Of a DNA stretch of 64,000 nt, positions 16,083-40,606 are shown in pieces. Under the pieces are notes generated by a model that was not told the DNA's origin, made no database searches, and saw nothing but the letters and a program-made list of their open reading frames with translations. Position numbers and translations under genes: made by a program. How positions within the stretch are numbered: position 1 is the stretch's first letter; each line of letters begins with the position of its first letter. Origin of the DNA: a virus (lineage: Duplodnaviria > Caudoviricetes); the IMG/VR virus record IMGVR_UViG_2521172628_000001, positions 16,261 to 80,260 of that record. One strand, 5' to 3'.

Positions 16083-16502
16083 TCAGCCCCTGCCCGCGGT
16101 GCCGGTGTCGCCGCCCACGCTCTCGATAACGTCGCGCGGCGTGGTGGTGTCCTGCGGCTGGTCGTCGACCGATGACGGCACCGTGTTCACGCTGTACGTG
16201 AGGATCAGCGACAGGCCGTCGGGGTGGTCTTCGGAGCCGTCGAACGTGGCCTTGCCGCGCGGGTGCAGGCCGCGCTGGATGGCCTCGTTGGCGACGGCCG
16301 CAGCGTTCGCATCGTGGGCCGCCTCCTCGTCGCGGGCAGGCCACGACGACTTCAGGACCACGAACTCCTTGACGTAGCGGGTGCCTTCGGCGCCGTCCGC
16401 CGAGCGTTCGTCGACCTCGACGGCCGCCTCGCCGTCCTTGGCGGGGAACTGCTTGGTGCGCGCTTCGGCCGTGCTGCTGGTGGTCTTCTTCGCTGCTGCC
16501 AT
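16083..16502 (-). CDS. Hypothetical head-module protein
   Basis: GGAGGTGA RBS; directly after capsid. Confidence 0.75.
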   Translation of the reverse strand: MAAAKKTTSSTAEARTKQFPAKDGEAAVEVDERSADGAEGTRYVKEFVVLKSSWPARDEEAAHDANAAAVANEAIQRGLHPRGKATFDGSEDHPDGLSLILTYSVNTVPSSVDDQPQDTTTPRDVIESVGGDTGTAGRG

Positions 16503-37151: not shown

Positions 37152-37790
37152 GTGGATGTCGTCGGCACCTGGACAGGCCGATCAGCATGCCTCCTCCAAG
37201 AGGCGATGCGGATGACGAACGAGGCGTTCGGCGAACGCCTCGGGATCTCTCCCCGCACTATCACCCGGTGGCATCAGGCGCCGGAGATGACCCATCGAAT
37301 CGAGGTCCAGCAGATCCTCGACACGGCATACGAGCAGGCAGGTGAGGCGGTGCAGCGACGGTTCGCGCTTCTCATGAGGCCCGCCGAGCCGCGCGTGACC
37401 GCGCAGGCCCTGCGGGTAGCGATAGCCGTCGTGCTGCGCGGAAATGATGTGCTGCTGGTTTGCCGGCGCGGGGACGGCGAGCTGCGCTGGCAGTTCCCGG
37501 CCGGCATGGTCAAGCCGGGCGCCACACCGGAAACGGTCGCCGTCCAGGAGACACACGGCGAGACGGGCGTGCACTGCATCATCCGCGAGCAGCTGGGTGA
37601 ACGCGTCCACCCGGTTACCGGTGTCGTCGCGGCGTACTTCCTCGCCGATCACCTGGCGGGCGAGGCGCGAAACCTCGACCCGCTGGAGAACGTCGACGTG
37701 ACGTGGGTGCCGCGTTCGGCGCTGACCCGGTTCATTCCGCAAGACCAGATCTTCCCGCCGATCCTGAGCGCCTTGGAGGCCATCGCATGA
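37152..37790 (+). CDS. XRE-type HTH - Nudix hydrolase fusion
   Basis: TNEAFGERLGISPRTITRW plus WQFPAGMVKPG..AVQETHGETG. Confidence 0.85.
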   Translation: MDVVGTWTGRSACLLQEAMRMTNEAFGERLGISPRTITRWHQAPEMTHRIEVQQILDTAYEQAGEAVQRRFALLMRPAEPRVTAQALRVAIAVVLRGNDVLLVCRRGDGELRWQFPAGMVKPGATPETVAVQETHGETGVHCIIREQLGERVHPVTGVVAAYFLADHLAGEARNLDPLENVDVTWVPRSALTRFIPQDQIFPPILSALEAIA

Positions 37791-38200
37791 CGACCGAGAC
37801 GACCACCGAGAAGCCGGGCATCTCCGCCGCGATCATCGTCAGCTCTGGGCGCGTCCTGATGGTGCGGCGCCGCGTCTCCGAGGGCGAGCTGATGTGGCAG
37901 TTCCCGGCCGGCGCTATCGAGGCCGGCGAGTCCGCGGAAGAAGCTGCCACCCGGGAGACGGAGGAGGAGACCGGCCTGACCGTGAAGGCGATCCGCCTCC
38001 TCGGGGAGCGGGTCCACCCGAAGACACAGCGGCTGATGTCGTACACGGCCTGCGAGCCCGTCTCCGGCGAAGCGCACGTGGCCGACGATGACGAGCTCGA
38101 CGCGGTCGCCTGGGTGAGCCTCGACGAGATCCCCGAATACGTGCCCTACGGCCTGTTCGGCCCGGTGCAGGAGTACCTGGATGAGGTGCTGGCGGGCTGA
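37787..38200 (+). CDS. Nudix hydrolase
   Basis: Canonical box GAIEAGESAEEAATRETEEETG. Confidence 0.9.
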   Translation: MTTETTTEKPGISAAIIVSSGRVLMVRRRVSEGELMWQFPAGAIEAGESAEEAATRETEEETGLTVKAIRLLGERVHPKTQRLMSYTACEPVSGEAHVADDDELDAVAWVSLDEIPEYVPYGLFGPVQEYLDEVLAG

Positions 38201-38789: not shown

Positions 38790-38856
38790 CCGCCAACACC
38801 TGGGCGGAATAGGCCATTCGGCCACAGAATTCACATAGAATTGCAGGAAAACGGCG

Positions 38857-38890
38857 ACGGCCGGACGGGGCTCAATCCGTCCGGCCGTTT
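38857..38890 (+). terminator. Rho-independent terminator
   Basis: 12-bp stem ACGGCCGGACGG followed by short T tract. Confidence 0.65.
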
Positions 38891-39008
38891 CGCGTAGAGC
38901 GGGTCATCACCCCGCTGCCATCACCTGCCGTCCGACCCTCGCCAGAAAGTCGAGCAACACCATGACGATACCGATGACGCCGCAATGTCGCCACCAGGCG
39001 GTGGCGAG

Positions 39009-39362
39009 TTGAGGATCTTCCGATCCAAGCCGAAGAGCGGCTGGACGCCCACCAGCAACGAGCACGTCGCCCGGAACTACGTCCTGAGCCTGAAGGCGAA
39101 GGGCCTGCTGGTCACCTTCCTGTCGCAGCCGGACGGCGGCGGAATGACGGTCGAACGGCTCGCCTATCTCCACAAGGCTGCTGGCGGCAAGGGTGAGGGC
39201 GAGCACGCGATCCGCGAGGCCCTGAAGGAGCTGCGATCCGCCGGCTTGGTGACGCACGTGAAGGAGAAGGGCAAGGGCGGTCGGTGGCAGACGACGACCC
39301 TCGTGAGCGACACACCGGAGGGCCTGTTGCGCCTCCTCAAAGAGGTCTCACCGGACCCCTGA
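39009..39362 (+). CDS. wHTH replication-initiator-like N-terminal domain (possibly truncated)
   Basis: WTPTSNEHVARNYVLSLKAKGLL..AIREALKELRSAGLV..GRW..VSD. Confidence 0.65.
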   Translation: MRIFRSKPKSGWTPTSNEHVARNYVLSLKAKGLLVTFLSQPDGGGMTVERLAYLHKAAGGKGEGEHAIREALKELRSAGLVTHVKEKGKGGRWQTTTLVSDTPEGLLRLLKEVSPDP

Positions 39363-39560
39363 TTTTCCGGGGTCCGGAGGCTCCGGATGCCGGACTGTCC
39401 GGAGTCCCGTGGCTGGGGGGTCAACTACCTAAGACGTCTACAGGAAGAAGGCTGGACTGGAATATCCGCTCCTCGAAGAGGAGAAGCCTGCCTCTCTTCC
39501 CGCCGCTGTTCGCGCAGGCGCGCGCGACCTGGCCTGGGGTCGCCGTGTACGGTGCCCGCC

Positions 39561-39725
39561 ATGAGCACTCCGCCCACCCCGGCCCCGACCGCCCCGCGTA
39601 CCCCGTTGCCCCGTCTGGCGGCTCGCTCGTCGGCGGGTTCGCCGCTGCTGGCCCGGGTCGTGCGCCGGGGGCCGGAGGAGGGTCCGAGGCCGGTGGCGGT
39701 GGCCGCGTTCCAGTCGGCCGTGTGA
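39561..39725 (+). CDS. FxSxx-COOH type RiPP precursor-like peptide (54 aa)
   Basis: Ends VAVAAFQSAV-stop; RTPLPRLA..LLARVV leader; TACGGT 7 nt before ATG. Confidence 0.75.
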   Translation: MSTPPTPAPTAPRTPLPRLAARSSAGSPLLARVVRRGPEEGPRPVAVAAFQSAV

Positions 39726-39733
39726 ACGCAGCA

Positions 39734-39768
39734 GAAGGCCCCGCGCCCGGGATGGGTGCGGGGCCTTC
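39734..39768. terminator. Bidirectional terminator
   Basis: GAAGGCCCCGCGCCC / GGGTGCGGGGCCTTC. Confidence 0.7.
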
Positions 39769-39783
39769 GTCGTGCGCCGGTGC

Positions 39784-40143
39784 TCACTTCTCGCCCGCCC
39801 GGTCGATGTCCCAGTTGCGGTCGTTGGCGGCCAGTTCGGCGACACTGGGGTGGTCGGCGTGTGCCGCGTTGATCTGGTCGCGGATGGCTTCGTATCCGGT
39901 GAGCCGGTCGCGCCAGTTGGTGGGCTCGGGTCCGGATTTGCCGAAGTGGGCGCGGAGTTCGGCAACCAGGACGTCGTCGCCGGGGTTGTCGTGGTCGTGG
40001 CCGAGGGCTTCGCAGAGGATGTCGCGGAAGCGGTCGGCGGCTCCGGCTGCGGTGCGTCGGGCGGCATGCTGGTCTTCGAGCTCGGCGTGCAACTGGTCGA
40101 GGTCGTCGCTGGTCATCTGGTCGAGGGTTTTGCGGTCGGTCAC
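39784..40143 (-). CDS. Hypothetical protein
   Basis: RKTLDQMTSDDLDQLHAELE; GAGGA RBS. Confidence 0.7.
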   Translation of the reverse strand: MTDRKTLDQMTSDDLDQLHAELEDQHAARRTAAGAADRFRDILCEALGHDHDNPGDDVLVAELRAHFGKSGPEPTNWRDRLTGYEAIRDQINAAHADHPSVAELAANDRNWDIDRAGEK

Positions 40144-40289
40144 AGGTAGTCCTCGCTCGGCTTGATCGTTGTCACGTCGCGCACGACCAGCGTTTCCCCG
40201 CACATTTCCTGCCGGCCTTGCTCGCAGAGTCGGTCGAGGGCGGCCGGGTTGGTGCGCCAGTTCGGCTCGGCGTCGGGTGGGGCAGTCAC
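40140..40289 (-). CDS. Small hypothetical protein
   Basis: GTGA coupling at both ends. Confidence 0.55.
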   Translation of the reverse strand: MTAPPDAEPNWRTNPAALDRLCEQGRQEMCGETLVVRDVTTIKPSEDYL

Positions 40290-40606
40290 GGCTGGCTCCG
40301 GTTGATTTCGCGGGCGATCGCGAGGGCCGCAGCAGCGTCTTCGGGCATGGGGGCGTCTTCGCGGAGTTCGATGGGCGTCCAGCTGCGGAGCCATTTCGCG
40401 AGGTGGCGGGCGGTGGTGGGGTTGAGGAGTCCGGCGAGTTGTCCGGCCGGGGTGCCGACGGCGTTTTCGATTCCGTGGCCGAACCAGTGGTGCTTCGGAG
40501 CGATTCGGGAGTGCCAGTACGGGTTGGTGTTGATGTCGCGGTCGGCGTCGTCGGCGAGGTCGAGGAGGGTTTGCGCGGCGGTGGCAAGTTCCTGGGCGGG
40601 GGTCAT
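40286..40606 (-). CDS. Hypothetical protein
   Basis: MTPAQELATAA...ALAIAREI; AAGGAG RBS. Confidence 0.7.
   Translation of the reverse strand: MTPAQELATAAQTLLDLADDADRDINTNPYWHSRIAPKHHWFGHGIENAVGTPAGQLAGLLNPTTARHLAKWLRSWTPIELREDAPMPEDAAAALAIAREINRSQP

Follow-up and report, generated by a model that had tools for sequence, protein, structure and literature searches.

A 64,000-nucleotide stretch of DNA from a tailed virus (the window; Duplodnaviria, Caudoviricetes; positions 16,261 to 80,260 of IMG/VR record IMGVR_UViG_2521172628_000001) carries a 54-codon open reading frame (ORF) that we identify by its sequence as a real phage gene for an FxsA-type precursor, that is, the precursor of an FxSxx-COOH peptide made by the ribosome and modified after translation (RiPP), separated from its maturase. 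Peptide family, enzyme and locus already have descriptions and names; the difference lies in the setting, in which the precursor stands alone on a virus, lies in a cargo slot, has its own promoter-like element, recurs in a phage lineage and is matched by a host locus. We regard it as an evenly balanced proposition that the product is a phage-made FxsA mimic that would be matured by the host enzyme, act through the host Fxs system and keep a suicide module quiet. An initial annotation, made from the letters of the window, had described an orphan FxSxx-COOH precursor-like peptide in a phage, a description that homology, the stand-alone state of the gene and its position in a variable slot bear out.

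The ORF encodes a member of the FxsA family

The frame is intact and ends in TGA at 39723-25, and the 54-residue sequence given in the initial annotation is the exact translation of 39561-39722 (plus strand); the hexamer reported there, 7 nucleotides (nt) before the ATG, is likewise present. The elements of the gene are as follows.

39561..39725, plus strand: fxsA-like ORF of 54 codons and a TGA stop, predicted from TIGR04268, alignment, motifs and codon composition
39708..39722, plus strand: codons for F50-Q51-S52-A53-V54, the FxSxx-COOH motif and predicted site of a Phe-to-Ser three-residue cyclophane
39548..39553, plus strand: -10-like hexamer TACGGT, with 7 nt between hexamer and ATG
39734..39768, no strand assigned: 15-bp GC hairpin, likely a two-way terminator, from folding and shuffles

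The leader of the peptide has the motifs P-L-x-R-L-A-A and S-P-L-L-A-R-V-V, the core reads V-A-V-A-A-F-Q-S-A-V, and F-x-S-x-x lies at the very C-terminus, residues F50-Q51-S52-A53-V54 being followed by the stop codon. The profile for FxSxx-COOH cyclophane-containing RiPP peptides (NCBIfam TIGR04268) matched residues 13-54 along profile positions 5-44 of 44, reaching the C-terminus, at 25.6 bits (E 1.1e-5). The family match that the initial annotation expected is therefore there, although the score falls under the curated cut-off of 28 bits. Members of the same subfamily that adjoin FxsB score 24.0-46.9 bits, and since three of the five lie below the cut-off as well (24.0, 25.1 and 25.3), we read the sub-threshold score as a property of the subfamily and no sign of a foreign peptide. 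Four of five other orphan copies exceed the cut-off (31.0-37.8 bits), the fifth, L048, scoring 13.2. As an observation in its own right, the 28-bit cut-off misses precursors directly upstream of a full FxsB (L010/G336, L015/G184 and L018/G378); with three of five tested FxsB-adjacent precursors at 24.0-25.3 bits, annotation based on TIGR04268 under-calls FxsA. The profile for SjiA-type FXSXX-COOH peptides (NF040585) did not match the window peptide at E up to 10, and relatives of the peptide score 11.6-22.9 bits against its cut-off of 75.

Database searches placed the peptide in the family once relatives were combined into a profile. When 1.84 billion representatives were searched exhaustively with HMMER, four proteins reached E up to 1e-3, namely the peptide itself, P0002, P0003 and P0004. 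P0003 and P0004 have the leader motifs P-L-x-R-L-A-A and S-P-x-L-x-R-V-V and the FQSxx end, and P0004 is named 'FXSXX-COOH protein' by one source; P0002, a 572-aa protein of tandem repeats, matched in five short stretches (E 4.6e-7) and was set aside, the match being one of composition or repeats. A homologous-protein search with the peptide alone found only the peptide itself, a single-peptide search of viral contigs gave 417 pattern stretches with none confirmed, and a search of genome contigs with a three-peptide alignment gave 90 with none confirmed. The three-peptide profile, run in six frames over 401 Streptomyces genomes, gave 15 places, of which seven in six genomes are strong (E 4.9e-15 to 7e-10) and all end in AAFQS[AS][VL]-stop; the weak places L016, L017 and L019-L023 (E 1e-4 to 8e-3) were left out. 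Because this profile finds FxsB-adjacent peptides at such E values, the likeness to them exceeds chance. All ten columns invariant in 11 aligned homologues (R13, L16, R32, G41, V45, V47, A48, F50, Q51 and S52) are present in the window peptide, and FQSxx is invariant in the homologues, in line with the C-terminal conservation anticipated in the initial annotation. We thus identify the window ORF, on these alignments, as a genuine FxsA precursor homologue, and file it as a sequence homologue and not as a proven equivalog of FxsA.

Codon composition delimits the gene. The reading frame is already open from 39387, upstream of the ATG at 39561, but GC at codon positions 1/2/3 is 0.76/0.74/0.89 across 39561-39722 and 0.64/0.72/0.62 across 39387-39560, so that only the part from the ATG onward looks coding. 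A longer 112-aa frame starting at 39387 was rejected for its third-position GC (GC3) of 0.62 upstream of the ATG, as were the overlapping minus-strand ORFs as genes (GC3 0.74).

Chromosomal relatives lie in Fxs loci

Six of the seven strong places, and one weaker place (G378), lie 45-75 nt upstream of a same-strand gene for a radical SAM/SPASM protein of the FxsB family, these genes scoring 581-618 bits against TIGR04269 (cut-off 370). In the two annotated loci the peptide is followed by a maturase with an HExxH extension (FxsBH), then by FxsC, which has a TIR-like N-terminal domain and an FxsC C-terminal domain, and then by FxsT, a KGGVGR-AAA/FxSxx_TPR protein of 1,335-1,521 aa. Chromosomal fxsA copies have GAGG 6-8 nt before the ATG. 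In a second sample of 401 Streptomycetaceae genomes, an 11-sequence profile matched 43 genomes at 46 places; among the 30 that became loci and were classified, FxsB starts directly downstream in 27. Two loci in which FxsB-like sequence lies upstream only (L066 and L070) were left unclassified, L034 and L041 were too near a contig end to assess, and L057 (G422) was removed from the orphan set, since FxsC-like genes adjoin it.

Two side observations concern the diversity of these loci. In L066 (G491) and L070 (G656) an FxsA-type peptide lies downstream of sequence resembling the C-terminal (HExxH) part of FxsBH, with no FxsB start within 1.5 kb after the peptide, which may reflect another gene order or a second precursor. 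A large group of FxsB-adjacent peptides (L053, L054, L056, L058-L061, L063, L065, L067, L074 and L077) has ends such as A-A-F-Q-S-F-S-S-K; since the Ser is followed there by three or four residues and not by two, 'xx-COOH' is not universal in the family.

In the literature, Fxs loci are predicted to be systems of conflict or apoptosis. Section 24 of PMC7159879 predicts a coupling of Fxs-type peptide-processing modules with NTPase/TIR conflict systems and proposes that the processed peptide is a toxin or an amplifying signal. The relevant part of a later preprint (bioRxiv 10.64898/2026.10.19.760177) predicts FxsC to be an active NAD+-degrading TIR protein and FxsT a ParA-like switch with sensor domains, suggests that the peptide may work as an antiviral molecule or warn neighbouring cells, and still terms the loci functionally uncharacterised.

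The provirus encodes no maturase

The window makes up the right-hand 64 kb of a provirus record of 80,260 bases. The record is that of a tailed Streptomyces prophage and includes genes for portal, large terminase, major head protein, tape measure and minor tail protein, and further for a DnaB-type helicase and a sliding clamp, along with an FtsK/SpoIIIE-like gene. Across the whole 80,260-base record there was no match to FxsB (TIGR04269) or to the radical SAM domain PF04055, for which the control was positive in 14 of 14 genomes, and tblastn with FxsBH, FxsC and FxsT found no match in the record. The absence of a radical SAM gene, claimed in the initial annotation for the window, thus extends to the entire record. 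Since FxsB, radical SAM, FxsC and FxsT matches are all missing from these 80 kb, the label 'orphan' is, as far as sequence comparison reaches, correct. A phage-encoded alternative maturase was rejected because the record has no radical SAM gene.

Orphan copies recur in related phages

With the peptide family as query, stand-alone copies turned up in five contexts.

L048, on a 93-kb metagenome contig: with homologues of the helix-turn-helix (HTH) protein, DnaB and one more window gene
G245:C557, on a 24-kb contig: with three early-gene homologues, the peptide convergent with them
L079, on a 9.9-kb IMG/VR record: with DnaB at 60% identity, the peptide convergent
L033/G778, on an IMG/VR record of 73 kb (estimated completeness 84%): with an FtsK-like gene and terminase at 58% identity, FxsB being absent
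Further orphans, on several short metagenome contigs

The first four are related to the window phage (DnaB 55-63% and terminase 58% identity), so that the similar orphans which the initial annotation thought worth seeking do exist. Among metagenome loci with enough sequence downstream of the peptide, FxsB follows in four of 13 and is absent in nine. A scan of IMG/VR for the pattern AAFQS-x-V-TGA gave five stretches, of which L079 and L083 (the L033 contig) are real and L080-L082 were rejected as chance.

A maximum-likelihood tree of 50 peptides, which has few columns and many unresolved forks, splits the orphans into two groups made up of orphans alone; these belong, along with two FxsB-linked groups, to a single 21-row clade (support 92/80), and the sister of the window peptide is L048 (support 94/83). 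Because orphans form groups of their own and do not each lie beside a host copy, the capture appears to be old and the gene to have been kept. In 11 orphan or unplaced copies the final ten residues, V-x-V-A-A-F-Q-S-x-V, do not vary, while the core codons differ synonymously (GCC/GCT/GCG/GCA, GTG/GTC, TCG/TCC and CGG/AGG). Pairwise ratios of nonsynonymous to synonymous change (dN/dS, Nei-Gojobori) are 0.12-0.9 for most orphan pairs and 0.12-0.56 within the best-sampled orphan group. These comparisons indicate that the C-terminal core is clearly under purifying selection.

Orphans also share a promoter-like element, TAC[CG]GT, which occurs within 120 nt upstream of the start in eight of nine orphans and in none of seven FxsB-linked copies. 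It lies at -36 to -41 in seven orphans and at -13 in the window, and in most of those orphans a GGAG-type ribosome site is found between hexamer and start (L048, L037, L046, L042 and L011). A GC hairpin whose sequence differs from copy to copy follows within a few tens of bases of the stop in L011, L033, L037, L042/L043, L045, L047 and L048; none is evident after L039/L040 or L046. As a side observation, a NUDIX gene lies 0.8 kb downstream of the orphan in L040 (957-1370), on the other strand and 43% identical to the second NUDIX gene of the window, which hints that NUDIX genes and orphan peptides travel in the same kind of element.

A probable cognate Fxs locus in the host

The provirus record itself contains no DNA of the host. 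The sequencing run X1, a 9.9-Mb contig set with all sampled words of the window stretch, was compared at 80% likeness with the 20-kb fxs locus of genome G204. One 22,417-base contig of X1 is collinear with the radical SAM domain, the HExxH part, fxsC and fxsT of that locus, in long pieces of 350-923 nt at approximately 80-84% identity whose spacing on the contig equals that in the locus; the contig also matches the left flank of the G204 locus. At the same likeness it did not cover L028 8312-10200, the part holding fxsA. FxsB proteins of other FxsA subfamilies share only 60-67% protein identity with that of G204, so the match points to the same subfamily. From this collinearity, it is very probable that the organism carrying the prophage possesses an Fxs system complete in its enzyme and effector part. 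Host Fxs loci, envisaged in the initial annotation, thus find their counterpart in a collinear fxsBH-fxsC-fxsT contig from the very run that holds the window.

A second case is G245, which has an orphan on C557 and fxsA-fxsB on C278 (FxsB 606 bits), the last 11 residues of the two peptides being identical. Peptides of the subfamily occur in 6 of 401 and in 2 of 401 sampled genomes. The hosts of peptide-less phage relatives (G001-G003) have no peptide of the subfamily; G001 lacks FxsB, and G002 and G003 have short FxsB types only. The tally is therefore two of two orphan hosts against none of three hosts of peptide-less relatives, small numbers in both cases, and phylogeny influences phage host range as well as Fxs distribution.

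These data bear on the possibility that the ORF encodes a functional small phage protein that works unmodified and independently of FxsB, for example on another host target, its FxSxx end being kept for another reason. Such a role would fit a phage that encodes no maturase, and leaders that are far less conserved than in typical enzyme-guided precursors. We nevertheless consider it very improbable, because the best-conserved part of the peptide is the very motif that FxsB enzymes cross-link, and because both assessable hosts carry the cognate locus whereas hosts of peptide-less relatives do not.

The peptide gene occupies a variable slot

The neighbourhood of the gene comprises the following features.

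38985..39362, plus strand: 125-aa winged-helix/HTH DNA-binding protein, upstream neighbour (phrog_4707, phrog_37920 and others, E 4e-9)
39363..39530, plus strand: conserved non-coding element, probable left edge of the cargo slot, alignable in seven loci, with related phages diverging directly behind it
39784..40119 (start approximate), minus strand: convergent neighbour, last gene of the early/replication block, similar to NuM1 (Streptomyces phage ZL12)
30469-32481, strand not given: FtsK/SpoIIIE-like gene (phrog_12531, E 4e-69)

Two NUDIX genes, an unknown gene and the HTH gene, the latter being the last conserved gene of the plus-strand cluster, precede the peptide gene, with which the plus-strand series ends. 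The peptide gene is convergent with a minus-strand block that runs from 39784 via an RNA ligase to the replication genes (helicase and clamp), as the initial annotation had it in placing the peptide opposite to the early operon. Seven loci were found via the HTH protein, in four IMG/VR records and three Streptomyces genomes (L003 and L007 probably represent a single element). Each retains the HTH gene (64-93% identity) with approximately 170 nt of non-coding sequence behind it, beyond which the loci diverge, and the peptide is present in none of the seven; in L004 the RNA-ligase gene returns 1.8 kb further on. Because the HTH gene and these approximately 170 nt are kept while the content behind them differs among relatives, we place the peptide gene, from these alignments, in a variable cargo slot between conserved modules.

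For the non-coding element, the consensus structure has 53 predicted pairs, 13 of which keep pairing through changes on both sides, and the sequence contains repeated CCGGA/TCCGG motifs. It could be a structured RNA, a set of operators bound by the HTH protein or a boundary at which the slot recombines. Rfam at E up to 1 gave two meaningless weak matches only, and a tRNA scan gave none.

The hairpin behind the peptide gene has a 15-bp stem, folds at -41.7 kcal/mol (z -4.5) and is equalled by none of 200 shuffles. It has no U-run, was not called in a scan for consensus (T-run) terminators, and lies 16 nt past the stop codon (39784-86) of the convergent gene on the minus strand, which makes it common to both convergent genes and not private to the peptide; it is likely, from its fold and position, a two-way terminator for both. 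The 'strong terminator' of the initial annotation accordingly stands as a strong hairpin, but one without a U-run or a terminator call, and shared.

Several further observations concern the neighbours. At the position of the peptide gene, L003 (4560-4900) and L005 have a small ORF, hydrophobic in the middle and bearing one Cys-x-x-Cys pair at either end, whose product resembles a zinc-ribbon membrane protein. The two NUDIX genes (37152-38200) are in tandem and overlap, the first with a weak N-terminal HTH match, and the pair is kept in the closest relative at 58-66% identity. The convergent gene matched no family. In the phage collection, Streptomyces phage ZL12 was the sole relative of the 2.3-kb neighbourhood (247 nt at 77.7%), the match lying in the convergent gene, outside the peptide; ZL12 is a plasmid-prophage, and its matching gene adjoins ParA, ParB and a Tra3-like gene.

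What the peptide may do

We propose the following course. The gene would be transcribed from the TACGGT hexamer as a leaderless mRNA; host FxsBH would recognise the peptide through the retained leader motifs and link Phe50 to Ser52 into a cyclophane; and either the product or, through occupation of the enzyme or TPR protein, the precursor itself would mimic the host FxsA peptide. The phage or prophage could in this way steer the host Fxs module (TIR-like FxsC together with the ParA-like/TPR protein FxsT), most likely keeping it from firing. The spacing of TACGGT to the ATG fits an mRNA that begins at the A of the ATG, and leaderless transcripts are common in Streptomyces; the leaderless reading is drawn from these two points. 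The proposed Phe50-Ser52 link follows from the family name and from the part of PMC10114670 in which FxsB is listed among cyclophane-forming enzymes. A more specific version, in which the phage peptide occupies the FxsT sensor or saturates FxsBH and so holds the FxsC module silent in lysogeny or infection, is offered tentatively. The initial annotation had suggested that the phage borrows the host maturase or uses the peptide as a mimic or decoy; for this idea the support is circumstantial.

A number of points weigh against a matured FxsA mimic that acts on the host module. As to identity, the TIGR04268 score is sub-threshold and Pfam has no family for the peptide. As to expression, transcription and translation of the ORF are predicted only; there is no Shine-Dalgarno sequence ahead of the window ORF, the window copy lacks the 5' leader seen in seven other orphans, a generic sigma-70 consensus promoter scan of 38800-40300 called no promoter, TACGGT included, and the hairpin is shared with the convergent gene. 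As to constraint, dN/dS of the window against other orphans is 0.57-0.89, pairs with L048 reach 0.8-1.6, several of them lying near 1 or higher, and the R-V-P-L leader motif has been lost from L048; by these sequence measures, constraint on the leader is thus weak in the branch of the window and L048. As to the host, the link rests on two cases, X1 is assumed to be a single organism, and the G245 assembly is fragmented (>550 contigs) and perhaps not from one cell. Finally, in the portions of PMC7159879 and bioRxiv 10.64898/2026.10.19.760177 that treat it, the immune role of Fxs loci is a prediction without experiment, and the direction of any effect, blocking or triggering, is pure inference.

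Some of these points would equally be expected if the ORF were a decaying passenger, a fragment of a host fxs locus gained by illegitimate recombination into a recombination-prone slot and now unexpressed or useless. The missing 5' leader and Shine-Dalgarno sequence, the fast divergence of the leader, the dN/dS of 0.57-0.89 against other orphans, the sub-threshold profile score and the unrelated cargo in the slot of the seven related loci are all compatible with decay. We consider this improbable, however, because the frame is intact from an ATG 7 nt after a hexamer conserved among orphans, all ten family-invariant columns are present, in-frame GC3 is 0.89, the core is unchanged despite synonymous differences, and two orphan-only groups in one subfamily indicate an old capture followed by retention.

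An alternative that assigns the gene a function of another kind is lysogenic conversion, in which the prophage would supply an extra FxsA precursor and hence more modified peptide, protecting the lysogen and related cells against other phages. This reading draws equally on homology, orphan status, recurrence and host link. The gene closes the plus-strand HTH/NUDIX cluster, is convergent with the replication block and has a promoter-like hexamer and hairpin of its own, the layout expected of a prophage-expressed gene, and the peptide is modelled as an antiviral or alerting molecule in the part of bioRxiv 10.64898/2026.10.19.760177 that discusses it. Against it, there is no evident reason to duplicate just the cheapest part of a system that the host already owns, and we consider it unlikely.

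Relation to known systems and significance

The window peptide shares with FxsA (TIGR04268) the leader motifs and the C-terminal V-x-V-A-A-F-Q-S-x-x-COOH, and it nests in one FxsA subfamily, but at 54 aa it is shorter than the 58-66 aa of those peptides. Its gene differs from theirs in having no FxsB, FxsC or FxsT nearby or in the 80-kb record, in being followed by a hairpin where the chromosomal gene is followed by the maturase, and in having another promoter-like hexamer and no Shine-Dalgarno sequence where chromosomal copies have GAGG.

Phages encode mimics of host immune and toxin-antitoxin components, for example antitoxin mimics that silence abortive-infection systems. If the FxsA mimic that we propose works in a similar way, the likeness would lie in a phage that owns the small and cheap component of a suicide-type system but lacks the effector parts. 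We know of no phage immune mimic that needs post-translational maturation by a host enzyme. With prophage morons the gene shares its place in a variable slot between conserved modules, a -10-like hexamer of its own and a hairpin; it differs in that the hairpin is common to the convergent gene, and independent transcription is putative. Triceptides, which are RiPPs bearing three-residue cyclophanes, made by the radical SAM/SPASM enzymes XyeB, GrrM and FxsB and including MicA/MicB, likewise have an aromatic-x-x motif, here F-Q-S, at the cross-link site, and section 5 of PMC12912966 gives a shift of -2 Da per such motif as shown for MicA/MicB. Described triceptide clusters encode the precursor beside the enzyme, whereas here the precursor is viral and the enzyme, if any, is host-chromosomal. 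A literature search for a phage-borne FxsA, with supplementary files outside its range, found no published account, so that the 'undescribed' of the initial annotation holds for the literature searched.

Fxs loci are common in filamentous actinomycetes and are predicted to be suicide-type immune systems. A virus that keeps the peptide alone under selection, in hosts that have the rest, would be natural genetic evidence that the peptide is the control point and that phages meet the system. It also provides a simple experimental handle in one 54-codon gene, a defined mass-shift read-out and a defined host locus. If the tentative version is true, in which the peptide occupies the FxsT sensor or saturates FxsBH, this would be the first viral immune antagonist requiring maturation by an enzyme of the system that it disarms, and the uncharacterised Fxs system would gain a testable function.

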